From the NCBI GenBank assembly GCA_963796725.1, contig CAWCMT010000001.1, positions 161,405 to 225,404 of the forward strand: 64,000 nucleotides of DNA. Reading direction: 5' to 3'. The first letter of the stretch is position 1, and each line of letters starts with the position of its first letter. The notes under the pieces are model-generated. The model saw nothing but the letters and a program-made list of their open reading frames with translations, did not search any database and was not told the origin of the DNA. Shown in pieces: positions 1 through 26,544 of this stretch. The stretch is from an uncultured Actinomycetes bacterium. Lineage in GTDB: Bacteria; Actinomycetota; UBA4738; HRBIN12. The position numbers and the translations under genes are program-made.

Positions 1-2164
1 CGAGCTCGAGGAGGCCCCCGAGGCACGGGTCCTGACCGAGGCCACGGCGATCGGTATCTACGACGACGGCTACGTGGTCGTCTACGAGCGCTCGGTGCCG
101 GTCGCCCGCGTGTGGCACGTGCGGGCGGCGCGCGTCGTTGTCGCGGCCGGCGCGCACGAACGGCCGATCGCGTTCGCCGACGACGACCGCCCTGGTGTGA
201 TGCTCGCCTCGGCGGCCCGCATGTACGTCGACCGGTTCGCCGTCGCGCCCGGGTCGCGCGCGGTCGTGTTCACGACGAATCACACGGGGCACGACGTCGC
301 GCTCGCACTCGACGCGGCCGGACTGGAGATCGCCGCGGTCGTCGACGTGAGCGAAGCCGGCCCCGCCAGCGACCGGACCCGCGAAGCCGGCATCGACGTC
401 CGCAACGGCTGGGCCGTCACGGGCACCGGTGGCGAACCGCGCGTGAGGGAGGTTCACGCGTCGGGGCCCGGAGGTGCCGGCGCGACGTTCGACGCGGACC
501 TGCTGTTGGTCGCCGGCGGCTGGAACCCGGCCGTTCAGCTCTGGCGCGGCATCAACGGTGGGCTTCGCTACGACGACGAACGCGCGTGCTTCCTGCCCGA
601 CGGCACCGGGCCTCGCTGGCTCGACGATCGTCGGCGCCGCCGCGGGCGATGGACTCCCCACCGTCACGCCGTTCTGGTTCACGCCCGCGGAGGACCTGAC
701 CCGACACTTCGTGGACCTGCAACGGGACGCTACCGTCGCCGATGTGCTCGACGCAGTGTCGCGCGACCTCCGGTCCACGGAGCACGTGAAGCGCGCCACG
801 TATATCGGCACCGCGATCGACCAGGGCCGCACGAGCGGCGGTGCTCACGGCGGCCATCGTGAACCAGGCCTGGAGTACCGGCCCGGGCGCGCAGGGACCC
901 ACGAACGCCCGTCCCCCGTACACGCCGGTGCCGTACTCGGTCCTCGCAGGTCGCGACCGTGGTCCCGAGCTCCTCGATCCCGCCCGTCAGACGCCGATCC
1001 ATCCCTGGCACCTCGCACACGGCGCCGTCTTCGAGAACGTCGGGCAGTGGAAGCGTCCGTGGTACTTCCCCACGGCAGACGGCGAGGACCTCCATGCTGC
1101 GGTCGAGCGCGAATGCGTCGCGGTGCGCGAGCGCGTGGGCGTGATGGACGCCTCGACCCTCGGCAAGATCGAACTGGTCGGGTCCGGACGTCGCGAGGTT
1201 CCTCGACCGCCTCTACACGAACCGGATGTCGACCCTGAAGGTGGGCTCGATCCGGTACGGCTTGATGTTGAGCCTCGACGGGATGGTCTTCGACGACGGC
1301 GTGGCGATGCGCCTCGCCGACGACCGCTACCTCATCACGACCACAACCGGAGGAGCCGCCAAGGTGATGGAGCACGCCGAGGAATACCTCCAGACCGAGT
1401 GGCCCGATCTCCGCGTCTACGCCACGAGCGTCACGGAGCAGTGGTCCACGATCGCCGTCAACGGCCCGAGGTCCCGCGACCTCCTGGCGGCGCTCGGCAC
1501 GGACATCGATATCGCCACCGAGGCGTTCCCGTTCATGACGTGGCGTGACGGTGAGGTTGCGGGCATGCCGGCGCGCGTCGCGCGCGTCAGCTTCAGCGGC
1601 GAACTCGCGTACGAGCTCAACGTCGAGGGCCGGCTCGGCCTGACGATGTGGGAGGCGGTGATCGCCGCGGGTGCTCGGCTGGGCATCGCGCCCTACGGGA
1701 CCGAGGCGATGCATCGGCTCCGTGCCCAGAAGGGGTACGTGATCGTTGGCCAAGACACGGACGGGACGGTCACGCCGCACGATCTGGGCATGTCGTGGAT
1801 CGTGAGGAAGGATGGCTCGGACTTCATCGGGCGGCGCTCCTTGCGACGGCCCGACACGCTGCGGCGTGACCGGAAGCAGCTCGTGGGGCTGCGGCCGACG
1901 GATCCAGGGGCGTGGCTCCCTGAGGGCGCACAGCTGGTGGCACCCGAGCACGCACTCGACACCCCGCCGGTCCCCATGCTGGGGTTCGTGACGTCGAGCT
2001 ACCCACGGTACGCGGCGAGCCGGTCGCTCGCTCTCGCGCTGGTCAAGGGAGGGCGCGAGCTGATCGGCTCCCGGCTGGTGGCACCGTGGCCAGGCGGCGC
2101 GATCGAGGCCGAGGTCACGTCGCCCGTCTCCTACGACCCCGAGGGAGAGCGGCGTGACGGCTGA
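1..2164 (+). pseudogene. soxA: Sarcosine oxidase alpha subunit (SoxA), copy 1. The 5' end lies outside the window. The frame is interrupted at least three times (about 630, 850 and 1200).
   Basis: Translations in frames 2->0->1->2 join into a continuous SoxA-like sequence: [19 protein letters not shown]...[19 protein letters not shown], then [51 protein letters not shown], then a C-terminal GcvT-type folate-binding domain (1226..2164). The 3' end overlaps soxG by 11 nt. Confidence 0.8.
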
Positions 2165-2732
2165 CGCGATCCGACGCGACCCGCTCGCCGCACGGCTCGA
2201 GGACCTCGCGCTCGTGGTCGCTCGCACCGGCGGCGCGGTGGGGCTGACGCATGAGCCGTTCCTCACCCAGATCTCGCTGCGACTCGATCCTGCCCTCGCC
2301 GACCGCGCCCCCTATCCCCTACCCCTCACGCCGAACACCGCCTGGGAGGAGGGACCGCGAGCCGCCCTCTGGCTCGGTCCCGACGAGTGGCTCATCCTCG
2401 GTCCGCCGGACGAGGCAGCCCGGATCGCGGCCGAGCTCGATGGAGCGCTCGACGGCCTACACCGGAGCGTGGTGGACCTGAGCTCGAACCGGTCGGCGTT
2501 CGAGCTCACCGGCCCCGGCCGGTTCGAGCTGCTGTCGAAGGGGTGCCCGATCGATCTCCATCCGCTCGCCTGGGCGGCGGGCCGCTGCGCCCAGACGCTG
2601 CTCGCCAAGACCCAGATCGTCCTGCACGAACGGGCCGACAGCACCGGCATCCTGGTGCGCACGTCCTTCTCGACCTACCTGGTGGACTGGCTCCTGGCAG
2701 CTGGGGGCGAGGCCGTCCCAGCCCGGGGATGA
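2154..2732 (+). CDS. soxG: Sarcosine oxidase gamma subunit (SoxG).
   Basis: The 192 aa product has a SoxG-like pattern (LWLGPDEWLILGPPDE...SAFELTGPG...VRTSFSTYLVDWLL) and its start overlaps the soxA stop. Confidence 0.75.
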   Translation: MTADAIRRDPLAARLEDLALVVARTGGAVGLTHEPFLTQISLRLDPALADRAPYPLPLTPNTAWEEGPRAALWLGPDEWLILGPPDEAARIAAELDGALDGLHRSVVDLSSNRSAFELTGPGRFELLSKGCPIDLHPLAWAAGRCAQTLLAKTQIVLHERADSTGILVRTSFSTYLVDWLLAAGGEAVPARG

Positions 2733-2880
2733 AACCGGTATCCGACACGACGAGAGGAACCACGGCCCTCGGGACCTTCGACCCCGGTCGCCGTGGCGCG
2801 GCGCCTCATAGGCTGACTCGCAAGGCCCTGGGCCAGCCTCGTCGATCCGGGGCGCCGGGCCTAGGGAGGAGGATCTCTCG

Positions 2881-3585
2881 ATGGCAACCACCTTCGCGCC
2901 CACGGAAGACGAGAGGCGACCGGCACGCACCGCCAGGTCCACGTCCTTCGAACGCCAGCGTCGGATCGGCGGCGCGCTCCTCGGCTCCGCAGCAGCGGTG
3001 ATCTTCCTGGGGATCATCACCGCGGAAGCGCTGTATCCAGCCCCGTACGACACGGCAGAGAACACGATCAGCGACCTCGGGGCGACGCTCCCGCCGCACA
3101 GCGTGATCTTGCAGCCCTCCGCCACGATCTTCGACCTCACGATGATCGCGTCGGGACTTGCGATCATCGCAGGCGCCTACTTCGTCCATCGTGTCTTCTC
3201 ACGCAAGGCCGTGACGATCCCCCTGGCCCTGCTGGGGCTCGGTGCCCTGGGCGTGGGCGTGTTCCCCGGCAACCACCTCGCGCCCCACCAACTCTTCGCC
3301 ATGACGGCGTTCATCAGCGGCGGGATCGTCGCGGTCCTCGCCGCGACGATCCTCGTGACTCCGTTGCGCCAGATCTCGGTCGCGCTGGGCATCGTGTCGC
3401 TGATCAGCTTCCTGCTGGCGATGTTCTTCCTGGAGTGGGGTCCTGTTGCCCGCTTGGGCGAAGGAGGCATCGAGCGCTGGATCGTGTATCCGCAGGTCCT
3501 GTGGCTCGCCACGTTCGGCGGAGCGCTCATGGGGCCGCGCGACGTAGGAAGCTCGCGCCAGAACACCGATCGGTCGTTCCACTAG
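2881..3585 (+). CDS. Integral membrane protein of unknown function (DUF998-like, recalled from memory).
   Basis: The 234 aa ORF has about 6 predicted TM helices and a GGGAGGAGG ribosome-binding site 6 nt upstream of the ATG. It sits between two convergent sox gene sets. Confidence 0.55.
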   Translation: MATTFAPTEDERRPARTARSTSFERQRRIGGALLGSAAAVIFLGIITAEALYPAPYDTAENTISDLGATLPPHSVILQPSATIFDLTMIASGLAIIAGAYFVHRVFSRKAVTIPLALLGLGALGVGVFPGNHLAPHQLFAMTAFISGGIVAVLAATILVTPLRQISVALGIVSLISFLLAMFFLEWGPVARLGEGGIERWIVYPQVLWLATFGGALMGPRDVGSSRQNTDRSFH

Positions 3586-3596
3586 TCTGAGACGGA

Positions 3597-4813
3597 CTAG
3601 CGATGGGTTCCGGCGCTGGCGGCGTCCGGCACCATACGGTCGTTGCGGAACCTGTCGGGTGCGAACGGCGCGATCAACGGATCAACGCGGCCCGACGCGA
3701 GCAACTCCGCCATCGTCTTGCCGAAGATGGGCGCCCCCTTGAACCCCCAGGTCCCCATGCCGGACATGAGGAAGAAGTTGCCGACCTCGGACTCGCCCAG
3801 CAACGGCGAGGAATCCGGGGTCATGTCGCACAGGCCGGTCCACTGCCGCATCATCCGCGCTTTCGCCATGAACGGCAGGAGCTGGATCGTGCGCTTCGCC
3901 GTCTCCGCCGCGAACTCGAAGGTCGAGCGGGTGGAGTAGGTGTTGTAGGGCAGGGTCTCGCCGCCCACGACCAGTTCGCCACGCGCCGTCTGCTGCGTGT
4001 AGACGTAGAGATCCATCGACGAGACCAGACCCCACAGCACGGGCGTGTACGCCTCGGTGACGAACGCCTGCAGCGCCATCGTCTCGATCGGCAGATGTAC
4101 GCCGGCCATCCGCGCGAGCTCGGACGAGTAGCCGGCCACAGCGCTGACCACGCGGCCCGCCGAGACCTTGCCCCGCGGTGGTCCGCACGCCCGTGCAGAC
4201 GCCGTCGGTCACCTCAACGCCGATCACCTCGACGCCCTCGTGGATGTCCACGCCCCGGCGGTTAGCTGCCGCCGCGTAGCCCCACACCACCGAGTCGTGC
4301 CGCGCGAACGCCCCCGGAGGGTGGTAGGAGGCGCCGATCACGGGAAGCTCGCCTCCCGCCGATAGGTCCACCAGCGGGCAGACCTCCAGCACCTCGTCGG
4401 GGGTGAGGATCTCCGTGTGCACCCCGTACTGCCGCTGGATCAGCAGCGACCTTCTCGCGTTCGACCTGAAGGGTGTCGGTGGAGTGGCACAGATCGAGGT
4501 TGCCCTGGGTGCTGAACAGCACGTTGTAGTCGAGCTCCTGCGAGAGCGTCCGGTACATGTCCAACGACGTTGCGTACAGCGGCACGGTCTCGGTCGTGTT
4601 GTAGGTGGCGCGGACGACCTGCGTGTTGCGCCCGCTGCCCCCGCTGCCCAGGTAGTGACGCTCGAGCACCACGACGTCGCGGATCCCGTGGTACTCGGCG
4701 AGGTGGAACGCCAACGAGAGGCCGTTCACACCCCCGCCCACGATCACCACGTCGTACCGCGGCTTCAGCTGACGACGGCTGAGGTACACGCGGCGACGTA
4801 GCAGCCCGGTCAC
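3597..4813 (-). pseudogene. soxB: Sarcosine oxidase beta subunit (SoxB). It has a GTG start and two 1-nt frame changes (about 4440 and about 4170).
   Basis: The N-terminus carries an FAD-binding motif (YDVVIVGGGVNGLSLAFHLAE). Three frames splice into a typical SoxB sequence (..LQVEREKV / LIQRQYGVHTEILTPDEV...VRTTAG / KVSAGRVVSAVAGYSSELARMAGVHLPIE...). Removing one G from the run GCGGGGCAAGG restores the frame. Confidence 0.8.
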
Positions 4814-5156
4814 GCCAGCAGCTCCGCGCAGTCGACACGGATCCGCTCCTCGACGAACGCACCCAGGCTCGCCGGCACGAGGATCGTGAGACGTCCGGGA
4901 GCCGAGAGGACCTTGGAGCCGATGCGGACGACGTCACCTTGGACGAACCCCTCGCGGGGAGGTCCAGCTCCGAGAGCCGAGCGAACGCCTCGGGAGCGTC
5001 GTCGCCCGTGAGCTCGAACGCGGCCCAGCCGTCCGTCACGTCCTCGATCAGGGCAGCGCCCTCATCCATCCCGACGCCGGCGGGGGTGAGCCCCCCGCCC
5101 CCTATCACCAGCGCCTCGCGCGGGGCGACGCGACACAGCGTGGCGCCCTCCGGCAT
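4810..5156 (-). pseudogene. soxG: SoxG-like gamma subunit, copy 2. It is N-terminally truncated by about 60 aa relative to the copy at 2154..2732 and has one frameshift after ELDLP.
   Basis: MPEGATLCRVAPREALVIGGGG...FELTGDDAPEAFARLSELDLP continues in the +1 frame as EGFVQGDVVRIGSKVLSAPGRLTILVPASLGAFVEERIRVDCAELLA*. The stop forms a GTGA overlap with the soxB start. There is a 66-nt gap to the soxA stop with no in-frame extension. Confidence 0.65.
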
Positions 5157-5222
5157 CGGAAGTCCGTCGAGCGCGGCGGTCGAGGCAGCACGGCGACCAC
5201 GGTGGGGATCACGGTCCGGAGC

Positions 5223-7838
5223 TCAACCACGGAGCCGCTCCCCCGTCGGATCGTAGAAGGGCCTGGGCGCCACGTGGGCATGCGTCCCCTCGTCGCCCGC
5301 GACGTCGAGGGCGGACGGGAAGCCGTCCTCGGAAGCTCGGATCCACCCCAGGCCGATCGGCCGATCCAGCGCGATCGAGCGTTCGGCGGAGGTGATGCGT
5401 CCCACGACCCGACCCCCGACGAGCAGCGGGGTGCCGCGCAGGGCGGCCACGTCGTCGGGTGGGCGCTCGAACTCCAGGCCGACGAGCTTCCGCGTCACGG
5501 GCAGCTCGGCGAGGCGTTCGAGAGCGCGCTTACCGACGAACCACTCCTTGTCCATCGCCACCGCCCAGTCCATGCCGAGCTTCGCCGGCGTGTCGTCGGG
5601 AAGCGTGTCCTGACCCAGATAGACATGACCTCGCTCCAGCCTGAGGAGCTCGAGCGCGTCGAGACCGTGGGGGAGGAGGTCCCACGCCACCCCCTCCCGG
5701 AGGACGGCGGCCCAGAGCTCGGGCCCGCGTGACCGCGGATGGTGCAGCTCGAACGCCAGCTCGCCCACGAAGCCGGTGCGGACGGCGCGACACGGGACGC
5801 CCGCGACCGTGAGGTCGGCGTGGCTCGGGTAGGGCAGCGCGGCAGGGTCGATCGGGTCGTCGGTGAGGCGTTCCAGGAGATCCCGTGCGTGTGGTCCCGC
5901 CACGTTGATCGCTCCCCACTGTGCCGAGCGGTCGAGGACGTGCACGTCCAGGTCCATGCGGTCCGCGAGGTCACGCAGACGTGCGTCGGTTCGCCCCGCA
6001 CCACCCGAGGTGGAGTTCAGATAGAAGGTGCCGTCGCCTATCGCGCAGAGGAGCCCGTCGTCCATCACGTAGCCCGCCTCATCGAGGCTCAGGACGTAGC
6101 GCGTGTCGCCCGCCCCGAGGTCGGCGGTTCGACACGGGAACATCCGGTCGATCAGCGTCGCGGCGTCGGGTCCGGCCACGGTGAACTTCCCGAGCGTGCC
6201 GACGTCCATCACGCTCACGCGCTCGCGCACCGCTCGGTACTCCTCGCGCCAGTCCCCGTACGTGAACGGCCGCCACCAGCCGCCCGAACGGTCCATCCGA
6301 GCGCCGGCGGCGAGGTGCACGTCGTGCAGGGAGGTCCGCTTGAAGTAGAGCTCATGCACGCCGGCGGCGAGTGACTCGAGCGTCACGGGACGCGCCGGCG
6401 GCCGCGAGGTCGTGCGCGGGGCGACCCGCGACGGCGCGTCCGCCGCGAGCGGGGCGAGACCTTCGCCGGCGGCCAGCTTGTCGCGAACGAAGCACGCGAG
6501 CGCCCGACCGCACATCGCGCCCTGGCACGGGCCCATCGTGGTGGTGGTGTAGCGCTTCAGGATCTCGGCGCCCTGGTAGCCCTCATCCCACGCCTGCTCG
6601 AGGTCGTGCAGCGAGACGTCCTCGCAGAGGCACACCGTGCCGTCGCGGCCGTGGGGTGGGGTCGCATCGGCGAGGGCGGCGTCGCCGACCAACTCCACCG
6701 GCTCGCCCGGGAGGGCCATGCGCGCCAGGGTGTCCCGCGGAGCGAGTCCGAGCGATAGCACCAATGTGTCGCACCTGAACGGCTTGACCTGGGTCCCGCG
6801 CCGCAGCACGACGGACTCCAGCGCCTTGCCGCCGCGGGCCTCGTGCAAGGTACCGTCGATCACGATCTCGTCGACGCCGTCGGGAACCTGATCCGCGAGC
6901 GCCTCGGGCACCGCGACCGCCGCGATCCGGACCCCGGCGGCCTGCAGGGTCTCGATGTGATCCAGTCCCTCCCCGATACCGACGACGGCGACGGCCACCT
7001 CACCCGGCCGCACGCCGTGGACGCCCGCCATGCGCGCGGCGCCGCGGCCCAGCCACACGCCGGGCAGGTCGTTGCCCCGGAACACAGGGTGGATCTCGGC
7101 GGCGCCGGTCGCCACGACGACGCGTTCGGGGTGCACACGCACCAGCTCCCCGTCGGCCACGAGCGGAACCTCGAGGCCCTCGTAGATCCCCAGCGCGGTG
7201 TGCCCATCGAGCACCGTGACGGCCGGCGACGAGCGGACCTCGGCTTCGAGCGTACGAACGCGCTCGAGGAGGGCGCCGGGCGCGATCGCGTCCCCGATCG
7301 GCGACTCGTCGCACACGGTCACGCGCTCGCCCCGCGCGCCGGCCGCGCGGGCGGCCTCGAGCCCGGCCGCTCCCGCCCCGACGACGAGCACGTCGGTCCG
7401 TAGGAACCGCACGACGCTGCGCTCGGCGACCGTCGTGGACGGGAGCGACCCCAGGCCCGTCGCCCGGCGGATGACCTTCTCGGCCGTCGACCATGCGAAC
7501 CGTGGCGTGATGAACGTCTTGTAGTAGAAGCCCACCGGCATCAGGCGGTGGAGCGAGTCCGTCACGTGGAGCAGGTCGCGCTCGGTCGAGGGCCAGCCGT
7601 GCGGACGCCGGACCTCCATACCGCTCGCGCACGGTGCCTGGCACGCGTGCACTCCCGGTCTGCCGTCGACGGTGACCAGGCAGTTGGGACAATCACCGGT
7701 TCCGCAGTAGAGGCCGCGGCGGCGGTGGTACTTCAGCGAGCGCGAGAAGGTGCGGACGCCGTCGCGGAAGAGCGCGGATGCCACGGTGTCGCGCTCGACG
7801 AACGGGACATCCCGCCCCTCGAAGCGGATCGCCCCCAT
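5223..7838 (-). CDS. soxA: Sarcosine oxidase alpha subunit (SoxA), copy 2. It appears intact, starting at the internal ATG (MGAIRFEGRDVPF...).
   Basis: It has an N-terminal 2Fe-2S motif (GLYCGTGDCPNCLVTVDG), an FAD/NAD domain (VLVVGAGAAGLEAA) and a C-terminal GcvT domain. The ATG lies 1 nt after the soxD stop. Confidence 0.85.
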   Translation of the reverse strand: MGAIRFEGRDVPFVERDTVASALFRDGVRTFSRSLKYHRRRGLYCGTGDCPNCLVTVDGRPGVHACQAPCASGMEVRRPHGWPSTERDLLHVTDSLHRLMPVGFYYKTFITPRFAWSTAEKVIRRATGLGSLPSTTVAERSVVRFLRTDVLVVGAGAAGLEAARAAGARGERVTVCDESPIGDAIAPGALLERVRTLEAEVRSSPAVTVLDGHTALGIYEGLEVPLVADGELVRVHPERVVVATGAAEIHPVFRGNDLPGVWLGRGAARMAGVHGVRPGEVAVAVVGIGEGLDHIETLQAAGVRIAAVAVPEALADQVPDGVDEIVIDGTLHEARGGKALESVVLRRGTQVKPFRCDTLVLSLGLAPRDTLARMALPGEPVELVGDAALADATPPHGRDGTVCLCEDVSLHDLEQAWDEGYQGAEILKRYTTTTMGPCQGAMCGRALACFVRDKLAAGEGLAPLAADAPSRVAPRTTSRPPARPVTLESLAAGVHELYFKRTSLHDVHLAAGARMDRSGGWWRPFTYGDWREEYRAVRERVSVMDVGTLGKFTVAGPDAATLIDRMFPCRTADLGAGDTRYVLSLDEAGYVMDDGLLCAIGDGTFYLNSTSGGAGRTDARLRDLADRMDLDVHVLDRSAQWGAINVAGPHARDLLERLTDDPIDPAALPYPSHADLTVAGVPCRAVRTGFVGELAFELHHPRSRGPELWAAVLREGVAWDLLPHGLDALELLRLERGHVYLGQDTLPDDTPAKLGMDWAVAMDKEWFVGKRALERLAELPVTRKLVGLEFERPPDDVAALRGTPLLVGGRVVGRITSAERSIALDRPIGLGWIRASEDGFPSALDVAGDEGTHAHVAPRPFYDPTGERLRG

Positions 7839-7839
7839 C

Positions 7840-8067
7840 TCAGTGGACCTCGTTCGTGCGCGTGTCGCGGGTGAGCGTCGTCCACGTGCGACAGCCAAGG
7901 GCGTGGAACCACCGCTCCTCTTGCGGGCCGGCGAGGTTCTCGGGATGGAAGACGCGCGCGAAGTCGGACTCGGGGTCGGTCGCATCGATCGGACGGACCT
8001 CGCCACCGAAGCTGAACTCGGTGGTGGGACGCGGGCCACAGAACCCGCAGGGGATCTTCAGCGTCAT
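7840..8067 (-). CDS. soxD: Sarcosine oxidase delta subunit (SoxD).
   Basis: The 75 aa product MTLKIPCGFCGPRPTTEFSFGGEV has the SoxD zinc-ribbon-like N-terminus. Confidence 0.8.
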   Translation of the reverse strand: MTLKIPCGFCGPRPTTEFSFGGEVRPIDATDPESDFARVFHPENLAGPQEERWFHALGCRTWTTLTRDTRTNEVH

Positions 8068-8205
8068 GTCGCACCACCCCCCGGATCCAGCCGTTCCACC
8101 ACGTGACCCCCGTTCAGGCTCGCGAGAGCGGAGTCTGCCACGACCTGCGGCATCGTGGCATGAGTAGGACGTGACCCGCGGTTCCCCGAGAGAGGGACGT
8201 CGCCG

Positions 8206-9072
8206 TCAGCTCAGCTCGCCGAGCATCCGCTGTTGCCATTCGAGCGTCGCGTTCACCTGGTTGAACGTGAACAGGTGAAGCGCCTCGATCCGAGCCGCGG
8301 GATCAACGAGGGCGTCCGCCAGCCCCAGGAGCAGCGCATCGGGACCGAACTTCCCCGGGGTCAGCAGGGAGCCGACCATCTTCCGGTTCTTCTTCAGGTA
8401 ACGCGCCGAGTCGGCGATGCCGATCCTCGCCGAGATCGTCATGAGCTTCGTGAGCTCGGCCACGCCCGGCGTGCCCAGATGCACGGGCAACGTGACCCCG
8501 ACCTCGCGCATCCTGCGCACCCATGCCGAGATGGCCGCCGGGTTGAAGCACATCTGTGTGGCCATGTATTGCGCGTACCGCTGCTTCTCCAGCAGGACCT
8601 CCAACAACCTGGCGTCGTCGATCGCGACGTGACCCTCCGGGTACGAGGGCACGCCGATCTCGGCGAAGGGATGGCCGCGCTCGTCGAGGGCGCGCAGCAG
8701 CATGAGGCCGTCATGGAAGGCACCCTTGTCCTTGGAGTCGCCTCCCACGACGAAGGCGCGCGTCAGCGATGCGGCGTGGCAACGGCCCAGGATCTCGTCC
8801 AGGTGGGCTCCGTCGCGGATCATGTGCGCGGACAGGTGCGGGATCGCGACGTGGCCCCGGGCGGCGAGCGATTCAGCCAGATCCAGGGTCGCCTCGATCC
8901 CGTGACTGGGCGACGCCGTGACGGTGACGACGGCCGTGGGAGGCAGTGCCTCCGCCTTCTCGGAGGCGTTCGTCAGCGGGATCAGCTCGAACTTGGGCGC
9001 CTGGACCAGCACCTGCAGCGCCGCGCTCTGCTCCGACGACAGGCCCGAGACCTTCCGCTTCCGCACCGCCAA
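8206..9072 (-). CDS. metF: 5,10-methylenetetrahydrofolate reductase (MetF/MTHFR family).
   Basis: The 288 aa product matches a MetF pattern (..FVVGGDSKDKGAF..LLRAL...PEGH..). Confidence 0.8.
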   Translation of the reverse strand: MAVRKRKVSGLSSEQSAALQVLVQAPKFELIPLTNASEKAEALPPTAVVTVTASPSHGIEATLDLAESLAARGHVAIPHLSAHMIRDGAHLDEILGRCHAASLTRAFVVGGDSKDKGAFHDGLMLLRALDERGHPFAEIGVPSYPEGHVAIDDARLLEVLLEKQRYAQYMATQMCFNPAAISAWVRRMREVGVTLPVHLGTPGVAELTKLMTISARIGIADSARYLKKNRKMVGSLLTPGKFGPDALLLGLADALVDPAARIEALHLFTFNQVNATLEWQQRMLGELS

Positions 9073-9087
9073 TTCCCCGCCTACCTC

Positions 9088-10632
9088 CTAGACGTTCGAG
9101 TCGGGGAAGGAGGCCTTCTGCCGCTCGATCCACTCCTGAAGTTCCTGATCCACCGCGTCCTCGATCGGCGGCGGCTCGTACTCGGCGAGCATCTTCTTCC
9201 ATATCGGGTTCGCCCGGTTAGTCGTTTCCAGTGCCCCTTCGAGCTCCCATTGCTCGAAGCTGTTGTTGTCCGCGACCGAGGACCGGTAGAACGCGGTCTC
9301 GAAGTTCGCCAGGGTGTGGGCCGTTCCGAGGAAGTGCTGGCCGGGACCGTTCTCGATGATCGCATCGATCGCCTGGCCGTTCGGAGAGAGGTCCACGCCC
9401 TTCGCGAGTTCGTGCATCATCCCGCACTGGTCGAGGTCCATCACGAACTTCTCATATCCCATGGTCAGCCCGCCCTCGAGCCAGCCCGCCGCGTGGAGCA
9501 CGAAGTTCACCCCTCCCAGGACGGTTGGCTGCAGGGTGTTGGCGGATTCGTAGGCGGCCTGCGCATCGGGGGTCTTGGCGGCCGTCAGCGAGCCACCGCT
9601 TCGGAAGGGGACGCGCAGCCGACGCGCACACGCCGCCAGGGTGTAGAGCACGAGCGCCGGCTCGGGCGTACCGAAGGTGGGTGCACCCGACTGCATCGAC
9701 ATCGACGATGCGAACGAACCGAAGACCACGGGCGCACCGGGGCGCACGAGCTGCACGTAGGCCATGCCCGCCAGCGACTCGGCGAGCGTCTGCGCCGCCG
9801 CCCCCGCCACGGTGGCAGGGCTCATGGCGCCCGCCAGGATGAACGGCGTCATGATCACGGCCTGGTTCGCCTCGGCGTAGGCTTTCGCGGCGCCGAGCAT
9901 CGACGAATCCCACACCAGCGGGGAGTTCGCGTTGATGAGGCTCAGGATGTACGTCCCCGACTCCAGCGCATCGACCCCGAACAGGATCCGAGCCATCTCC
10001 ACCGTGTCCTGGGCGCGCTGCGGATGCGTCACCGAACCCATGAACGGCTTGTCCGAGTAACGCATGTGCGCGTACACCATGTCGTAGTGCCGCTTGTTGA
10101 CGGGCAGATCCACCGGCTCGCAGACCGTGCCGCCCGAGTGGTGGAGGTAGGGCGCCGCGTACGCGAGCTTCACGAAATTGCGGAAGTCCTCGATGGTGCC
10201 GTAGCGTCGACCGCCGTCCAGGTCCCGGACGAACGGGGAGCCGTAGGCAGGCGCCAACACGGTGGCGTTCCCGCCGATCTGGACGTCGTTGGCGGGGTTC
10301 CGCGCGTGTTGCGTGAACACCTCAGGCGCGGTGGCCTGGACGAGCTGGCGGCACATCCCGCGGGGGAACCTCACCCGCTCTCCGGCGACGTCGGCGCCGG
10401 CATCTTTCCAGAGCTGCAGCGCGTCGGGCGCGCCCTTGAAGTCGATCCCCACCTCCTCCAGGATCCGGTCGGCGTTCTCCTCGATCAGGCTCAGCCCCTC
10501 CTCCGACAGAACCTCGAACGGCGTCAGGGTGCGGGTGATGAAGGGGACCCTCTCGGCAGCGCTCGCGAGACGGGCGGCGGCGCGGCCGGCGCGGCCTCCG
10601 GTCCGGCGTCCGCGCGGGGCGGTGTCGCTCAT
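9088..10632 (-). CDS. MttB-superfamily methyltransferase without pyrrolysine. I predict it is a glycine betaine (quaternary amine):corrinoid methyltransferase, MtgB-like.
   Basis: The 514 aa product shows trimethylamine methyltransferase family signatures (RTLTPFEVLSEEGLSLIEENADRILEEVGIDF ... MGSVTHPQRAQDTVEMARILFG ... HAAGWLEGGLTMGYEKFVMDLDQCGMM) and has no in-frame amber codon. Its start overlaps the ramA stop. Confidence 0.8.
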   Translation of the reverse strand: MSDTAPRGRRTGGRAGRAAARLASAAERVPFITRTLTPFEVLSEEGLSLIEENADRILEEVGIDFKGAPDALQLWKDAGADVAGERVRFPRGMCRQLVQATAPEVFTQHARNPANDVQIGGNATVLAPAYGSPFVRDLDGGRRYGTIEDFRNFVKLAYAAPYLHHSGGTVCEPVDLPVNKRHYDMVYAHMRYSDKPFMGSVTHPQRAQDTVEMARILFGVDALESGTYILSLINANSPLVWDSSMLGAAKAYAEANQAVIMTPFILAGAMSPATVAGAAAQTLAESLAGMAYVQLVRPGAPVVFGSFASSMSMQSGAPTFGTPEPALVLYTLAACARRLRVPFRSGGSLTAAKTPDAQAAYESANTLQPTVLGGVNFVLHAAGWLEGGLTMGYEKFVMDLDQCGMMHELAKGVDLSPNGQAIDAIIENGPGQHFLGTAHTLANFETAFYRSSVADNNSFEQWELEGALETTNRANPIWKKMLAEYEPPPIEDAVDQELQEWIERQKASFPDSNV

Positions 10633-12618
10633 GAACGTGCTCCTCTCGTTCGCTTGGGACGGGTGGCGGTGCGTGGCGCCGGCAGGTCGACGGCCCGAGC
10701 CAGGCGGGGCGTCGGCTCCGTGCTGTGGGGGATCCCCATCGCGCCCACGAAGTGCTCCTGGAACCGGGGTTCGATCGCGGTCTCGATCTTCTCGACCCGG
10801 CGCACGACCTCCTCGATCTCGACACGCGCGGCACGGTTCAACAGGGCGATCCGGGCCCCCGTGCCTGCCGCGTTGCCCGCGCTCGTGACGTTCTCAGGGT
10901 CGCAGTCGGGCACCAGACCCAGGACCAGGGCGTGGACCGGATCGATGTGGGCGCCGAACGCACCCGCCAGGCGGATCCGATCGACAGCCTCGATCCCGAA
11001 CCGATCCATCAACAGGCGGCAGCCCGCCCACAGCGCGGCCTTCGCGAGCTGGATCGCGCGGATATCCATCTGGGTGATGACCAGTCGGGGCGCGCCGTCG
11101 TGCAGGACGTAGGAGAACGTACGGCCCTCCGCCACGATCCTCGGCGAGCGCCCGGTCAACCCCCCGTCGATCACACCGTCGGTGCTGATGATCCCGGCCA
11201 GCAGCATCTCCGCGACGACCTCGATGATGCCCGAACCGCAGATCCCCGAGACGGCGGCCATGTCGAACCCGGGCTCGTCGGACCATCGCTCGCCGCCGAT
11301 CACCTTGAAGCGCGGCTCCAGGGTCTCGGGATCGATGCGCACCCGCTCGATCGCCCCCGGGGCGGCCCGTTGGCCACCCGAGATCTGCGCGCCCTCGAAC
11401 GCGGGGCCGGTGGGGCTGGACGCGGCGAGCAGCCGGTCCCGGTTGCCCAGCACGATCTCGGCGTTCGTCCCCACGTCGACGAGGAGGTTCACGGTGTCCT
11501 GCTCGTAGGGAGCCTCGGAGAGGATCACGCCCGCGGTGTCGGCGCCGACGTGCCCCGCGATGCACGGCAGCACGTAGACGCGTGCACCCGGGTTCGGCGC
11601 GTGGAGGTCCAACGCGGAGGCGGGGCGGCGCACGGCCTCATCGGTGGTCAACGCGAACGGGGCGCCGCCTAACTCGGTCGGATCCAGGCCGAGCAGCAGG
11701 TGATGCATGATCGGGTTGCCGACTGCCGTGAGCTCCAGCACGTCGCCGGGATCGGCGTCCGCCGCGGCGCAGAGCTCGGCGATCGAGGTCGTCGAGGCAT
11801 GCTCTGATCACGCGGGTGAGCTCGGTCTCGGCGCCGGGGTTCATCATGATGTAGCTCACGCGGCTCATGAGGTCCTCGCCGAAGCGGATCTGTGGGTTCA
11901 TCGCGCCCGCGGACGCAAGTACCTCGCCGGTGTGGAGGTCGCACAGGTGCCCCGCCACCGTCGTCGAGCCCACGTCGAACGCCACACCCAGGGCACGATC
12001 GTGGAAGCCCGGCCAGATCGCGATGATCTGGGCGCCGTCGTGCACCGCGACCGTGGTGGTCCAGTCGCCGGCCCGGAGCGTCCGCTGGAGCGACGCGAGC
12101 ACGGCGGCGTCGCACCCCAGCCCGGATAGCGACCAGTCGCGCTCGAGCGCCTCCGCGAGTCGCTGAAGATCCCCACTGGGATCCGCCATGTCGGGCTCGC
12201 GTACCTCCACGTAGTGAAGGCGCACGACCGGATCCACCTCGATCGGGTGCGCGTCAGCCTCCTTCCGCACGACCTGCCGGTGGATCTGGCTCTCGGGCGG
12301 CACGTCGACCACGAGGTCGTCCACGATCCGAGCGTGGCACCCCAGGCGCCGGTCCTCGGCGAGTCCGCTCCGATCCCGGAACTGCCGCTCGGGAGCGCTG
12401 AAGGGGGTGAGGTGATCCACCGCCGACGTGATGCCGTGCTTCGCGAACGCGCCTTCGCTCACGACGACCTGGCATCGCCCACAGATGCCGCGTCCACCAC
12501 AGACCGAATCCAGGTCGACGGCCAACTCGCGCGCGGCCGCCAGCAGGTCCGTGCCCGGCGCGAACCGGCCGCGCTTGCCCGACGGCGTGAAGACGACGAG
12601 CGCGCCCTCGTCGGTCAC
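10629..12618 (-). pseudogene. RamA/RACo-type corrinoid reductive activase (N-terminal 2Fe-2S ferredoxin plus ASKHA ATPase domain). It has one frameshift near 11790.
   Basis: The N-terminal ORF (11638..12618) carries CGGRGICGRCQV. The C-terminal ORF (10629..11741) starts LELTAVGNPIMHHLLLGLDP. Translating across the junction gives ..TRVIRA?LDDLIAELCAAADADPGDVLELTAVGNPIMHH... after a single frame change. Confidence 0.8.
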
Positions 12619-13541
12619 GACGGCGGCGCGCCCTCGGACGGTCGGCGGCGGCGACCCTCACGCCCGCCGCGGCGCCCGGACGTGGGGCCGCCCGTGGGGT
12701 CCTCGCGATAGCGGCCGATCCACGAGGCGCAGTGCTCGTCCGTGCCCATCAGGACGTCGGCGGCCATGACGGCCTGACGGACCTCCTCGTGCAGCGGGCT
12801 CGTGATCGCGCTCGTCAGGCCGTTCGCGATCGCCATGGTCAGGAACGCCCCGTTGATGCCGTTGCGGTTCGGCAGCCCGAACGAGATGTTCGACGCGCCG
12901 CACGTCGTGTTGACCCCGAGCTCCTCATGGAGGCGGCGCACGAGCGCGAACACCTGCCGGCCCGCGCCGCCCATGGCGCCGATCGGCATCACCAGCGGGT
13001 CCACGACGATGTCGTGCGCGGGGATGCCGTGGTCGGCCGCCGCGTGAACGATCTTCTCCGCGACGGCGAACCGCACGTCGGGGTCCTCGCTGATGCCGGT
13101 CTCGTCGTTCGTGATGGCGACCACCGCCGCGCCGTGTTTCGCCACCAGCGGCAGGACCTGCTCGATGCGCTCATCCTCCCCGGTGACGGAGTTCACGAGC
13201 GCCTTGCCCTGATATGCGGCGAGCCCGGCCTCCAAGGCCGCCACGATCGAGGAGTCGATCGACAGCGGCACGTCGGTGAGCGACTGCACCAGCTCGATGG
13301 TCTGAGCGAGGATCGCGGGCTCGTCGGCCAGCGGGATGCCGGCGTTGACGTCGAGCATGTGCGCGCCCGCCGCCACCTGCGCGTGCGTGTCGGCGACCAC
13401 CGTGGAGAAGTCGCCCGCCACCATCTCGGCGGCGAGTCGCTTGCGGCCGGTCGGGTTGATGCGTTCTCCGATGACGACGAACGGCCGTCCGCTGCCGATC
13501 ACGACCTCACGGGTCGCGCTGGAGACGACCGTGTCGGTCAC
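12615..13541 (-). CDS. Pterin-binding methyltetrahydrofolate:corrinoid methyltransferase (MtgA/MtrH/AcsE-like).
   Basis: The 308 aa product has a pterin-binding TIM barrel pattern (VIGERINPTG...GAHMLDVNAG...NSVTGEDER...GASNISFGLPNR). It forms an ATGA overlap with the ramA start. Confidence 0.75.
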   Translation of the reverse strand: MTDTVVSSATREVVIGSGRPFVVIGERINPTGRKRLAAEMVAGDFSTVVADTHAQVAAGAHMLDVNAGIPLADEPAILAQTIELVQSLTDVPLSIDSSIVAALEAGLAAYQGKALVNSVTGEDERIEQVLPLVAKHGAAVVAITNDETGISEDPDVRFAVAEKIVHAAADHGIPAHDIVVDPLVMPIGAMGGAGRQVFALVRRLHEELGVNTTCGASNISFGLPNRNGINGAFLTMAIANGLTSAITSPLHEEVRQAVMAADVLMGTDEHCASWIGRYREDPTGGPTSGRRGGREGRRRRPSEGAPPS

Positions 13542-13895
13542 TCAGTCCTCCTCGGATGAGGGCCGCACGGCATCGGTGTCGCCGGCGACGTCCGCCCCGC
13601 CTCTGATGCCACCGGAGCGGATCGCGGCGCGCAGGACGTCCTCGGTCCACTCGGCCTCCAGGGTCGCGGCCATGTCCGCCACCTCGGCGTCGAGGTCGTC
13701 GCCGCACGGACGGCGGTCCATCTGCATCTGCTCGGTGTAGTCGTCGGAGCCGATCAGCCCTGCGACCATCGCTGCGGCGTCGACCGCCTCCTGGAAACGC
13801 TCCGGGAGCAAGGCGCGCGCGCTCGCGCCGCCCTCGCCCCGGGCCACCAGCTGCATCGGGATGTCGCGCCACCGGATCACGGTCAACTCAGCCAT
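13542..13895 (-). CDS. Small acidic protein of unknown function with RWRD and GLIGS motifs. It may belong to the family Pfam labels 'virulence factor' (recalled from memory).
   Basis: The 117 aa ORF starts MAELTVIRWRDIPMQ and has an AAGGGA ribosome-binding site. It is tightly sandwiched between the corrinoid protein gene and the methyl-THF methyltransferase gene. Confidence 0.5.
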   Translation of the reverse strand: MAELTVIRWRDIPMQLVARGEGGASARALLPERFQEAVDAAAMVAGLIGSDDYTEQMQMDRRPCGDDLDAEVADMAATLEAEWTEDVLRAAIRSGGIRGGADVAGDTDAVRPSSEED

Positions 13896-13922
13896 ATCGT
13901 CCCTTCATCGGTCGGCTCGGCT

Positions 13923-14615
13923 TCACGAGGCCATCGCGCGCTTCGCGAGCACCAACGCCTGTGCGGTCTCGGCGGCCACGGCGGCGTCGCGGCAGTAGGC
14001 GTCGGCGCCCACCGCCTTGCCGAACTCCTCGTTCAGCGGGGCACCCCCCACCAGCACGATGTACTTGTCGCGCAGGCCCTTCGCCTCGAGCTCGTCGATC
14101 ACGACCTTCATGTAGGGCATGGTCGTCGTGAGCAGCGCGCTCATCCCCAGGATGTCCGGGTCGTGCTCCTCGAGGGCCGCCAGATAGTTCTCCACGGGAT
14201 TGTTGATGCCGAGGTCGATCACGTCGAAGCCGGCACCCTCGAGCATCATCGCTACGAGGTTCTTGCCGATGTCGTGGATGTCGCCCTTCACGGTGCCGAT
14301 CACGACGGTACCCATGCGCTCGGCACCGGTCTCCGCGAGGAGCGGACGGAGGATCGCCATCCCCGCCTTCATCGCGTTGGCGGCCAGGAGCACCTCCGGT
14401 ACGAACAGGATCCCGTCACGGAAGTCGATACCCACGATCCGCATGCCCTCTACCAGCGCCTCGTTCAGCACCCTGTCGGCGGCCCAGCCACGCCCCAGCA
14501 GGAGGTTCGTCCCCTCCACGATCTCCTCGGCGAGGCCGTCGTAGAGGTCGTCGTGCATCTGGGCGACGAGGTCGTCGTCACCGAGGGCCGACAGGTCGAT
14601 CTGCTCGTCGCTCAT
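13923..14615 (-). CDS. Cobalamin-binding corrinoid protein (MtgC/MtbC-like).
   Basis: The 230 aa product has a B12-binding motif (GTVKGDIHDIGKNLV, DxHxxG) and an N-terminal helical cap domain. Confidence 0.85.
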   Translation of the reverse strand: MSDEQIDLSALGDDDLVAQMHDDLYDGLAEEIVEGTNLLLGRGWAADRVLNEALVEGMRIVGIDFRDGILFVPEVLLAANAMKAGMAILRPLLAETGAERMGTVVIGTVKGDIHDIGKNLVAMMLEGAGFDVIDLGINNPVENYLAALEEHDPDILGMSALLTTTMPYMKVVIDELEAKGLRDKYIVLVGGAPLNEEFGKAVGADAYCRDAAVAAETAQALVLAKRAMAS

Positions 14616-17131
14616 GGTCGTTCCGTTCTCCTCGTCGCTCGTTGCCTCATGCCTTCAGGCGTTCGCCTTCGGGGTCCCACAGAGGGTCGGCGCTCACCGT
14701 CGCGGCGTGAGCGCACCCCGAAGTACTCGACCTCCACCGGCGTCCCCGCCGCGGCCAGCGCGGTCGGGAGGTAGCCGTAGACGATGCCCCGCCCGACCGA
14801 GTAGCCGTACGCCGCCGAGGTCACGTAGCTCACGACCTGGCCTTCATGCCAGATCGGCTCCTTGCCCATCGCCACGACCCGCGGATCGTCGAACGTCATG
14901 CAGGCCAGCCGGTGCGTCGGGCCGCCCTCGGCGCGGATCGCCTCCAGCGCCGCCTTGCCCTGGAACTCCTTATCCCAGCGCACCGCGAAGCCCAGCCCCG
15001 CCTCCAGCGGATCGTGCTCCGTGTGGATGTCCTGCCCCCAGAGCCGGTACCCCTTCTCCAGCCGCAGCGAGTCGAAGGCACCGCCGCCCGCCGCGATCAG
15101 TCCGTGGTCGCGACCCGCCTCCCACAAGAGATCCCAGACCCGATCCCCCATCGCCAACTGGCCGTAGAGCTCCCAGCCCAACTCGCCCGCGTAGGAGATC
15201 CGCTGCGCCCAGACCGGGTTGACCTCGCCGACGTTGAGGTAGCGCGCCGTGAGGTAGGGGAAGGCGTCGTTCGACACATCGGCGTCGGTGACCTGCTCCA
15301 GGATCGCGCGCGCGTTCGGTCCCCATAGGCCCACCGCGAACAGCGACCCGGTGCGCTCGGTGATCGTGATGTCCTCACCCGCGTGGATCTGCCGTCGGAG
15401 CCACGCAAGGTCGTGCTGGCCGCTGCCACCCCCCGTCACCACCCGGAAGAGCGCTTCGTCCTTGCGGATGACCGTGAGGTCCAGACGGATGCCGCCGCGC
15501 TCGGTGAGCGCCGCGGTGTAGACGATCGAACCCACCGGTCGGTCGATCCGATTCGCGAAGACCCGCTCGAGGAAGGAGAGCGCGTCGATCCCCGTCACGT
15601 CGAACTTCGCGAACGGCGTGATGTCGAAGAGCGCCGCGTGAGAGCGCGTCGTCAGATGCTCCGCGCCGACCTCGGGCGACCACCCCTCGGCAGCCCAGCC
15701 GCTCCGCCGGGCCCATTCGTGTGCGACGCCTCCGACCAGATCGCGGTTCGCCCGGAACCACTGCGGCCGCTCCCAGCCTGCGCCCGTGAAGAACTCCGCG
15801 CCGAGAGCCCGGTGCCGGGCGAAGAACGGCGTGAGCCGGAGGTTCCGCGGCTTCGAGGGCTGCTGGAGGGGGTGGATGATGTCGTAGACCTCTCGGTACT
15901 GCTGCTTTCCGCGCTCGATCACGTACGGCGCCGACGTCTGGAACGGGTAGAAGCGGTTGGCGTCGGCCTCGGCGAGGTCGTAGCTGGGCTCGCCCGTCTC
16001 CATCCACTCGACGACCTGGCGCGCCATACCCGCCCCGTGGGTGACCCAGACCGCCTCGCATACCCAGACGCCGCGCGCGGTTGCGCTCTCCCCCACCACG
16101 GATCCGCCGTCGGGCGTGAACGAGAACATCCCGTTCAGCGAACGTGCGGGGTCGGCGGGACGCATCTTCCCCGCGAGCACCGGGAACAGGCGTGCGGTCT
16201 CCGACTCACACAGATCGAAGTCGCGGGGGGTCCACGGCATCAACGAGGGCATGGGGCCGTCTCCGTGGCGCCGGATCGCCCCTTGGGGCGTCACGATCGG
16301 CTCGTGTCGGTAGTTGCCGACGCCGAAGTGATCCTCGCGCTGGCGGAAGTAGAGAGACATGTCCTGGTGGCGCACCACCGGCTGGTACATCCATCGATCG
16401 TGGGCCGAAGCCGCGACGTCGAGCTCCGGGATCGGGTCGGTCCAGACGAGCTGGTGCTGCACCGCCACCAGTGGGATCGGCACCCGTGCCAGCGCCCCTA
16501 CCCTCGGCCCCCATATCCCGGCGCAGATCAGGACCCGCTCGCAGTCGACGGTCCCTTGGTCCGTGTGCACCCCGTGCACGCGCCCCCCGTGGATGTCGAA
16601 CCCGGTGACCGTGACGCCACCCTCGAACGCCACGCCGCGCTCCTGAGCCGCCAGGGCGAGCGCGGTCACGAGTTGCACCGTCTTGGCGGCTCCGTCGGTG
16701 GGGACCCAGTAGGCACCGAGGATCGTGGAGGGATCCAGGAGCGGGCTCCGTTCCGCGGCCTCGGCGGGCGAGATGAGTTCGGTCCCCTCGATCCCGTAGG
16801 AACGTGCGAACCCCTGCCGTCGCTTCAGCTCCTCCATCCGCTCGGGCGTGGTGGCGACCTCCATGCCGCCGGTGCCGTACCAGCAGCGCTCCCCGTCGAG
16901 TTCGACGGAGTCGTAGAGCGCCACGGAGTCCTGCGCGATGCGGCACATGGTCCGCGAGCCGTTCGTCTGGAAGATGATGCCGGGGGCGTGCGAGGTGGAT
17001 CCGCCCGTCGCGAAGAGCGGTCCCTGGTCCACGACGAGCACATCGGTGACGCCCAACTCCGAGAGGTGGTAGGCGGCAGAGACACCGACGATCCCGGCGC
17101 CGATGATCACCGTCTGGGCACGTTCTCGCAT
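14612..17131 (-). CDS. Dimethylglycine dehydrogenase/oxidase family (FAD oxidoreductase plus GcvT folate domain). The last ~20 codons appear frameshifted: the native C-terminus is likely ..ATVSADPLWDPEGERLKA* with a stop at 14647.
   Basis: It begins MRERAQTVIIGAGIVGVSAAYHL and carries the DMGO/DMGDH signature HFGVGNYRHEP. The C-terminal GcvT_C tail is recovered in the +1 frame. Confidence 0.8.
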   Translation of the reverse strand: MRERAQTVIIGAGIVGVSAAYHLSELGVTDVLVVDQGPLFATGGSTSHAPGIIFQTNGSRTMCRIAQDSVALYDSVELDGERCWYGTGGMEVATTPERMEELKRRQGFARSYGIEGTELISPAEAAERSPLLDPSTILGAYWVPTDGAAKTVQLVTALALAAQERGVAFEGGVTVTGFDIHGGRVHGVHTDQGTVDCERVLICAGIWGPRVGALARVPIPLVAVQHQLVWTDPIPELDVAASAHDRWMYQPVVRHQDMSLYFRQREDHFGVGNYRHEPIVTPQGAIRRHGDGPMPSLMPWTPRDFDLCESETARLFPVLAGKMRPADPARSLNGMFSFTPDGGSVVGESATARGVWVCEAVWVTHGAGMARQVVEWMETGEPSYDLAEADANRFYPFQTSAPYVIERGKQQYREVYDIIHPLQQPSKPRNLRLTPFFARHRALGAEFFTGAGWERPQWFRANRDLVGGVAHEWARRSGWAAEGWSPEVGAEHLTTRSHAALFDITPFAKFDVTGIDALSFLERVFANRIDRPVGSIVYTAALTERGGIRLDLTVIRKDEALFRVVTGGGSGQHDLAWLRRQIHAGEDITITERTGSLFAVGLWGPNARAILEQVTDADVSNDAFPYLTARYLNVGEVNPVWAQRISYAGELGWELYGQLAMGDRVWDLLWEAGRDHGLIAAGGGAFDSLRLEKGYRLWGQDIHTEHDPLEAGLGFAVRWDKEFQGKAALEAIRAEGGPTHRLACMTFDDPRVVAMGKEPIWHEGQVVSYVTSAAYGYSVGRGIVYGYLPTALAAAGTPVEVEYFGVRSRRDGERRPSVGPRRRTPEGMRQRATRRTERP

Positions 17132-17174
17132 CTCTCTCCTTCCCGCTGATGCCGCTGCATGTTCTCACTGCCCG

Positions 17175-17216: not shown

Positions 17217-17254
17217 CGGGAGCGGACATCGACGCCTCCCGATACGTCCGCCCG

Positions 17255-24852: not shown

Positions 24853-26544
<1,692 letters not shown>

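Follow-up and report, generated by a model that had tools for sequence, protein, structure and literature searches.

Two convergent sarcosine-oxidase-like gene sets in an uncultured soil actinobacterium, one of canonical type and one a conserved D-A-G'-B variant

Why does one bacterium carry two gene sets of the heterotetrameric sarcosine oxidase (TSOX) kind end to end, and is one of them decaying? The question is raised by 64,000 nucleotides of DNA (the window) from an uncultured Actinomycetes bacterium (GenBank assembly GCA_963796725.1, contig CAWCMT010000001.1, positions 161,405 to 225,404), in which a plus-strand soxA-soxG pair (set 1) faces a minus-strand soxD-soxA-soxG'-soxB group (set 2, or D-A-G'-B). 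An earlier reading of the bare DNA (the sequence-only reading) took the gamma gene of set 2 for truncated and suggested that one set may be decaying; its observation was largely right, and these two interpretations were not. The explanation that we consider probable as a whole is that the window holds two functional, ancient TSOX paralogs in a betaine island, that the frameshifts are artefacts, and that set 2 would be an iron-sulphur (Fe-S) dehydrogenase variant. Its parts differ in firmness: it is very likely that both sets are functional paralogs with artefactual frameshifts, and we put forward only tentatively that the D-A-G'-B complex is a sarcosine dehydrogenase with an Fe-S relay.

The G+C content of the window is about 70% and raw open reading frame (ORF) lists are full of spurious frames. 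Because such lists mislead in DNA of this composition, they were replaced by a frame plot of G+C at third codon positions (GC3), a seven-state frame hidden Markov model and three-frame translations, which gave the following layout (aa, amino acids):

1..2164, plus strand: soxA of set 1 (alpha), partial, with its 5' end beyond the window; read through four frames, with Pfam SO_alpha_A3, GCV_T and GCV_T_C continuous on the stitched protein; counterpart of the 899-aa SoxA of metagenome contig L001
2154..2732, plus strand: soxG of set 1 (gamma), of canonical length (192 aa), intact; Pfam SoxG, E = 2e-16
2881..3585, plus strand: DUF998 membrane-protein gene, 234 aa, intact; Pfam DUF998, E = 4e-20
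3597..4813, minus strand: soxB of set 2 (beta, the catalytic flavoprotein), 403 aa in relatives; in three frames, the stitched protein matching Pfam DAO 1-353/353
4810..5230, minus strand: soxG', the compact gamma of set 2, 140 aa in relatives; in three frames, recognised with hhalign, AlphaFold2 (AF2) and Foldseek
5223..7838, minus strand: soxA of set 2 (alpha), 871 aa, intact; Pfam Fer2_4, Pyr_redox_2, Fer2_BFD, SO_alpha_A3, GCV_T and GCV_T_C
7840..8067, minus strand: soxD of set 2 (delta), 75 aa, intact, with a CxxC...HxxxC motif; Pfam SoxD, E = 2e-18

The two sets are convergent (tail to tail), and DUF998, whose stop codon is 11 nt away from that of set 2 soxB, is the sole gene separating them. 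Pfam and the frame analysis bear out the sequence-only reading in gene content, order (including D-A-G-B on the minus strand), orientation and the DUF998 spacer. Three of the seven sox genes (set 1 soxA, set 2 soxB and soxG') are not open reading frames in the window.

A near-identical locus supplies the intact genes. Set 2 SoxA is 99% identical to a Joint Genome Institute (JGI) metagenome protein (P0001) encoded on the 27.8-kb contig L001, which matches window 1..17840 with 98.44% identity (256 mismatches, 18 gap openings) and in which all 14 genes shared with the window are intact. The forward order in L001 is a dimethylglycine dehydrogenase (DMGDH)-like gene (827 aa), B12-binding, PF13769, pterin-binding, RACo, MttB-family, methylenetetrahydrofolate reductase (MTHFR), SoxD (75), SoxA (871), a 140-aa protein and DAO/SoxB (403); convergent on the opposite strand stand DUF998, SoxG (191), SoxA (899), SoxD (90), YjbR and SoxB (402), followed by IclR, PALP and ACAD. 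A further relative with 87% identity (L002) has the same layout as L001.

Comparison of the intact L001 copies gives 34% identity between SoxA871 and SoxA899, 38% between SoxB403 and SoxB402, and 40% between SoxD75 and SoxD90, and the two gamma subunits show no BLAST similarity to each other. By these comparisons the two sets are ancient paralogs of the TSOX family. Recent duplication is rejected at 34-40% identity, and the SoxA pair (34%) is far from the near-identical copies that the sequence-only reading had thought of as its refutation. The suggestion that the paralogs may act differently is plausible given this divergence, their different operon contexts and their different Fe-S cysteine motifs.

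The unusual order of set 2 is not peculiar to this genome. A scan of species-representative genomes returned 78 loci (best match 82%), all from uncultured metagenome-assembled genomes (MAGs) and mostly from Actinomycetota, with some from Thermoleophilia/Gaiellales, Gemmatimonadaceae and Chloroflexota. Of these loci, 61 span the whole region, and 58 of the 61 keep the order SoxD-SoxA-short gamma-SoxB, with SoxA identity as low as 43%; 16 loci also have a convergent canonical set, and 18 have MTHFR upstream of soxD. On this distribution, both the D-A-G'-B order and the short gamma are conserved traits of a distinct, widespread subfamily. The sequence-only reading would have given way to a corrected sequence with intact SoxB, full-length SoxG and standard order; SoxB is indeed intact in L001, where the order is still non-standard and the gamma still short. 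The DUF998 spacer is limited to the window, L001 and L002, and the two operons abut directly in other relatives (e.g. L003, L006-L009). It appears to be a recent insertion because it is absent in more distant relatives, where soxB on the minus strand directly precedes convergent soxG.

The alpha subunits of the two sets differ at eight cysteines. Set 2 alpha has the motifs C-x4-C-x2-C-x12-C (C45-C66) and C-x-C-x32-C-x4-C (C403-C443); Cys45/50/53/66 and Cys403/405/438/443 are invariant in 63/63 orthologs, all eight are absent from 11/11 set 1 alpha orthologs, and the TSOX alpha chain 1VRQ_A has Ser/Ala/Glu/Asp/Gln at these positions and no Cys. Pfam Fer2_BFD matches set 2 alpha with 27.5 bits vs a cut-off of 26. 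Two [2Fe-2S] motif types have been described for subunits gamma and alpha of the flavin-containing opine, D-hydroxyproline and L-proline dehydrogenases, which contain flavin adenine dinucleotide (FAD), flavin mononucleotide (FMN) and [2Fe-2S] and are dehydrogenases, not oxidases (PMC4575208). The first published motif, Cys-X4-Cys-X2-Cys-X11~12-Cys (PMC4575208), is present in set 2 alpha, which looks like a fusion of a ferredoxin-like module, an HcnB/OdhA-like module and the folate-binding GcvT module of TSOX.

Set 2 is nevertheless built like TSOX. The TSOX of Corynebacterium sp. U-96 (1VRQ/1X31) and Stenotrophomonas maltophilia (2GAG) is encoded by soxBDAG, with alpha, beta, gamma and delta together as in both sets here (set 1 being complete in L001). 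The closest solved structure to set 2 alpha is 1vrq_A (E = 1e-60) and to set 2 beta 1vrq_B (E = 7e-91). The beta subunit is of the DAO family, and its RHDS aligns with KHDH (residues 171-174) of 1vrq_B with the first His kept; from the TSOX literature we take the KHDH His to be the covalent FMN-attachment site. Set 2 alpha has SO_alpha_A3, GCV_T and GCV_T_C, the GCV_T domains being folate-binding and carried by both alpha subunits, and the predicted fold of set 2 gamma matches chain C. CxxC...HxxxC is found in the delta sequences of both sets, its residues being presumably the zinc ligands of the 2GAG structure. Set 2 differs from TSOX in the order D-A-G-B instead of B-D-A-G, in a gamma that lacks about 50 residues and that neither Pfam nor NCBIfam detects, in an alpha about 90 residues shorter with the eight invariant Cys in two motifs of [2Fe-2S] type, and in having all four subunits under the curated cut-offs.

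In the NCBIfam models for beta (TIGR01373, cut-off 529.45) and delta (TIGR01374, cut-off 116.5), set 1 passes with 611.9 and 128.6 whereas set 2 is below with 385.1 and 60, respectively. In the alpha model (TIGR01372, cut-off 1164) both are below (988.9 for set 1, 488.8 for set 2), and in the gamma model (TIGR01375, cut-off 144) set 1 is below with 109 and set 2 gives no hit; set 1 gamma passes Pfam SoxG PF04268 (60.9 bits vs 21). The set 1 soxA in the window has no cysteines in the BFD-like region, like 1VRQ_A. Set 1 is, as judged from these matches, close to classical TSOX with a cysteine-free alpha. It would act as an oxidase of the classical type on sarcosine or a related N-methyl amino acid.

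L001 supports the presumption of the sequence-only reading that the soxA-soxG pair closes an operon of canonical type, for there set 1 reads soxB-yjbR-soxD-soxA-soxG and adjoins the IclR and PALP genes. The extra yjbR-like gene sets it apart from TSOX operons: a YjbR/MmcQ-family gene of 116 aa (L001 18641-18991, upstream of window position 1) lies between set 1 soxB and soxD, is kept in about 16 relatives and is unusual for soxBDAG. Window 2000-3000, with soxG and the 3' end of soxA of set 1, has 81 mismatches per kb vs L001, compared with about 6-20 elsewhere. Set 1 SoxG vs L001 has a dS of 0.14 and a dN of 0.07, with compensating indel pairs at 2492/2494 and 2508/2520; the divergence may reflect a tract of recombination or a gamma that evolves fast.

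What set 2 might do is suggested by its neighbours. In the window and 18 relatives it forms the last four genes of a corrinoid/MttB-type operon, of which the upstream part, from soxD outward, is as follows:

8206..9072, minus strand: MTHFR (MetF-like), directly upstream of soxD in the same orientation; PF02219 in L001
9088..10632, minus strand: MttB-superfamily methyltransferase, 514 aa, no in-frame UAG, MtgB-like; PF06253 in L001, NCBIfam trimeth_pyl 247 vs a cut-off of 525
10629..12618, minus strand: RACo-type corrinoid reductive activase, frame broken at 11783; L001 calls/Pfam
12615..13541, minus strand: pterin-binding methyltransferase; L001 calls/Pfam
13542..13895, minus strand: 117-aa PF13769 (Virulence_fact) protein, conserved between the corrinoid-protein and pterin-binding methyltransferase genes; L001 calls/Pfam
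13923..14615, minus strand: B12-binding corrinoid protein; L001 calls/Pfam
14647..17131, minus strand: DAO-FAO_M-GCV_T dimethylglycine-dehydrogenase-like gene, frame broken at 14712; L001 calls/Pfam

Beyond the operon are a second gene of the DAO-FAO_M-GCV_T (DMGDH-like) kind, which shares only 31% identity with the first (18123-20545, plus strand), a putative ProV/ProW-like ABC transporter recognised by eye from its translation and not by Pfam (21740-24747, minus strand), and a GMC choline-dehydrogenase-like gene (25071-26543, plus strand). The first 27 kb or so thus look like a choline/betaine catabolic island.

Two candidates in this region were set aside. A 959-aa ORF at 8233..11112 (plus strand), which has no Pfam hit and is antisense to the genuine genes for MTHFR and MttB, is a typical high-GC shadow ORF and no gene. 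Rfam PYLIS_3 matches at 9489-9588 (minus strand) inside the MttB-family gene with 39.4 bits vs a gathering score of 38; the gene has no in-frame UAG, and the match is probably coding-sequence homology and no functional PYLIS element.

The module MtgBCD, with a RamA-type activase and MetF2, has its likeness in the upstream operon, which has an MttB-family protein, a corrinoid protein, a pterin-binding methyltransferase, a reductive activase and MTHFR. It works in glycine betaine demethylation in aerobic bacteria and is often co-located with downstream demethylation genes (PMC12478193). The difference is that the host here is an uncultured soil actinobacterium and that the sarcosine step would come from an Fe-S D-A-G'-B variant in the same operon. 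In the pathway that we propose, the corrinoid system would turn glycine betaine into dimethylglycine, the DMGDH-like enzyme would take dimethylglycine on to sarcosine, and the SoxDAG'B complex would convert sarcosine to glycine, with the one-carbon (C1) units taken up by tetrahydrofolate (THF). The flavin electrons of set 2 would leave via Fe-S clusters to an acceptor other than O2. Set 2 would then be a dehydrogenase, and set 1 an enzyme of oxidase type acting on the same N-methyl amino acid or a related one.

Two further systems were compared. With OdhABC, HcnABC and the archaeal proline dehydrogenase (PDH; PDB 1Y56), set 2 shares a DAO-type beta (1y56_B, E = 7e-45), an alpha-type pyridine-nucleotide-disulfide-oxidoreductase-like module (1y56_A match) and the first [2Fe-2S] Cys motif type, and it has a longer-spaced counterpart of the second, C-X-C-Xn-C-X4-C. 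In set 2, however, the ferredoxin-like and alpha modules are fused to the folate-binding GcvT, SoxD/SoxG-type subunits are present in set 2 only, and the spacer of motif 2 is 32 residues, compared with 15-20 in published members of the opine dehydrogenase family; set 2 departs from the three-subunit alpha/beta/gamma architecture without folate domain or SoxD/SoxG. N-methylglutamate dehydrogenase (mgdABCD) is likewise a TSOX-homologous four-subunit enzyme for a different N-methyl amino acid, and where one genome has paralogous sets of TSOX type, these usually differ in substrate and are often misannotated (PMC13236597). The reported order of mgdABCD is B-D-A-G-like, and it is set apart from set 2 by description and not by sequence; no gmaS or mgs gene was seen in the gene list of L001.

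In its fullest form the proposal is that D-A-G'-B is a folate-coupled N-methyl-amino-acid (sarcosine) dehydrogenase, with two [2Fe-2S] clusters delivering electrons to a respiratory or electron-transfer-flavoprotein (ETF)-type acceptor, that it is an evolutionary intermediate between the opine/proline-dehydrogenase/hydrogen cyanide (HCN)-synthase enzymes and cluster-free sarcosine oxidase, and that it is tied into a cobalamin-dependent three-step operon from glycine betaine to glycine in soil Actinomycetota. In this form the proposal is speculative and somewhat doubtful. Several points weigh against the explanation preferred here: only conservation points to [2Fe-2S] cluster binding by set 2 alpha, the spacer of the second motif is longer than in the opine dehydrogenase family, and the substrate assignment is the weakest link, TSOX-like clusters being known to be misassigned (PMC13236597). 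More distant relatives also carry the D-A-G'-B set without MttB/corrinoid genes, and the betaine link is clade-specific.

The alternative that survives best keeps all genes intact and divides the labour otherwise, set 1 being the sarcosine oxidase of the betaine pathway and D-A-G'-B oxidising dimethylglycine, N-methylglutamate, an N-methyl or cyclic imino acid, or an opine-like compound. It fits the far closer match of set 1 to the curated TSOX models (beta 612 vs 529 and delta 129 vs 116.5, both passing, with all four set 2 subunits below the cut-offs), the existence of TSOX homologs with other substrates that annotation pipelines confuse (PMC13236597), the many distant relatives in which D-A-G'-B is unlinked to MttB genes, and the resemblance of the set 2 Fe-S motifs to those of opine and proline dehydrogenases. 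It fits less well with the 18 loci in which set 2 is directly downstream of MTHFR in a betaine-type operon that already encodes a separate DMGDH-like enzyme, and with the folate-binding GcvT domains kept by set 2 alpha, domains that typify N-methyl oxidation in which THF captures the C1 unit. We regard this other division of labour as unlikely.

Both divisions of labour suppose working genes, and the frame breaks must be accounted for. The sequence-only reading had merely alluded to frameshifts among its checks; comparison with L001 locates seven indels in three sox genes. Set 1 soxA has +1 insertions at 626, 839 and 1182, set 2 soxB has +1 at 4174 and +4 (AGCA) at 4442, and soxG' has -1 at 4960 and -1 at 5188. 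With +1 at 11783 in the RACo gene and +1 at 14712 in the DMGDH-like gene, there are nine located frame-breaking indels in five genes, covering both sox sets and the neighbouring operon. The dN/dS ratios vs L001 are 0.15 (SoxA899), 0.23 (SoxB403) and 0.16 (RACo) for broken genes, compared with 0.23 for the intact SoxA871 and 0.20 for the DMGDH-like gene, and these substitution patterns give no sign of relaxed selection.

Genes unrelated to sox are broken in the same way. In stitched translations, single Pfam domains cross frame joints in the GMC oxidoreductase (25.1-26.5 kb, 25071-26543), an aminotransferase (47.2-48.3 kb, 47178-48285), a PAS-GGDEF-EAL protein (51.2-53.1 kb), PRK and a DEAD-box helicase (53.6-55.4 kb), and a transketolase (55.7-57.4 kb), where about eight joints are crossed. 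The second DAO-FAO_M-GCV_T gene is split at 19782/19787 and is a single continuous ORF in 12/12 orthologs. A second metagenome scan gave only orthologs of 67-77% identity, which supply this continuous ORF; no near-identical metagenome contig over the transketolase region was found in the metagenome scan. The window has at least 30 indels in 64 kb, roughly one per 2 kb, and split genes are likewise seen in 14 related MAG loci, nearly all of one series named 'MFD...'. Frame breaks are densest at 51.2-57.4 kb (51198-57432; about one per 300 nt), and 27-47 kb is almost clean, an unevenness that suggests locally poor consensus quality.

The breaks in set 1 soxA, set 2 soxB and soxG' are most likely assembly or consensus indel errors and not biology, because breaks hit unrelated genes, a 98.4%-identical contig is intact, and broken genes have the same dN/dS as intact ones. 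Weighing the other way, homopolymers account for only about four of the nine located indels and one indel adds four bases, a pattern unlike the classic nanopore homopolymer signature, and real, very recent frameshifts may have arisen in this particular strain.

Those same indels outside homopolymers, together with the disruption of three of the seven sox genes by seven indels, could also mean that one or both sets are genuinely decaying pseudogenes and the frameshifts real mutations, as the sequence-only reading had suggested for one set. The breaks, however, fall in both sets, in the co-operonic RACo and DMGDH-like genes, and in unrelated genes across the window such as those for the transketolase and the DEAD-box helicase. 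They are absent from the near-identical L001, the broken genes keep the dN/dS (0.15-0.23) of intact ones, and the same artefact pattern is present in long-read MAG relatives. A decaying cluster should show locus-specific disruptions, dN/dS near 1 and breaks shared by close relatives, none of which was found, and we consider pseudogene decay quite improbable. Programmed frameshifting was not judged a viable account, with at least 30 breaks in unrelated genes and none of them common to L001.

With assembly errors as the preferred account of the breaks, the short gamma is left to explain. The gamma is 140 aa in intact set 2 relatives vs 191-192 aa in set 1. Stitched soxG' gives no Pfam or NCBIfam hit, and Pfam is empty for close members even at E <= 10; a distant member has only weak matches to Pfam SoxG (E = 0.02) and GCV_T. 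With Pfam silent on the close members, recognition called for profile-profile comparison and structure. Residues 30-140 of soxG' align to SoxG residues 69-186 (hhalign, Prob 93.6%, E = 2e-7), so that about 40 N-terminal residues are missing, and about 50 overall; the sequence-only reading was right that this gamma is shorter, and had put the lack at about 60 N-terminal residues. A protein search returned 120 homologs, those of the close clade being about 138-140 aa long; none of the homologs carries a Pfam domain, and most are labelled 'hypothetical'. The family ranges from 132 to 176 aa.

An alignment of 41 soxG' sequences has 7 invariant and 19 nearly invariant columns, and the AlphaFold2 model built from it has a predicted local distance difference test (pLDDT) score of 95.9. 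The top PDB matches of this model in Foldseek are the TSOX gamma chains 2GAG_C and 1VRQ_C (E = 7e-8 and 4e-7, respectively; template modelling (TM) score 0.75), followed by GcvT and DMGDH folate domains. At both ends soxG' overlaps a neighbour, its start running into the stop of soxA and its stop into the start of soxB, an arrangement that suggests translational coupling. Alignment and model identify soxG' as a genuine compact SoxG homolog and not a truncation. That it is a truncated remnant or a mis-called start, dispensable to a complex working as a three-subunit enzyme, is scarcely credible: although a 140-aa protein with no Pfam or NCBIfam hit, called 'hypothetical' in most databases, invites that view, it stands at the same position in 58/61 loci with conserved columns, overlaps with both neighbouring genes and a confident model that best matches TSOX gamma chains.

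Two features at a distance from the sox genes were also recorded. At 60360-61769 (plus strand) the frame switches at about 61014; the stitched product has a CxxxCxxC motif and no Pfam hit at E <= 1e-5, and presumably resembles lysine-2,3-aminomutase-type radical SAM enzymes. The intervals 59187-60359 (1.17 kb) and 42660-43201 (0.54 kb) show no clear coding frame in the GC3 model and match no Rfam family at gathering score.

The locus is an example of how an assembly full of indels, in a high-GC MAG, can look like gene decay, and of how a natively short subunit that is invisible to profile models can be taken for a truncation. The D-A-G'-B set belongs to a known kind of enzyme, of which it is an uncharacterised variant, a modest addition that refines known biochemistry and overturns none. 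Its branch is unstudied and widespread in soil Actinomycetota, reaching Gaiellales/Thermoleophilia and Gemmatimonadaceae, and generic annotation lumps it with classical TSOX or labels its parts 'hypothetical' or '2Fe-2S cluster-binding protein'. Should the Fe-S clusters prove real, sarcosine would be oxidised without H2O2, and a cobalamin- and folate-linked route of betaine demethylation would be completed in aerobic soil bacteria, which would bear on osmolyte turnover and C1 flux in soils.

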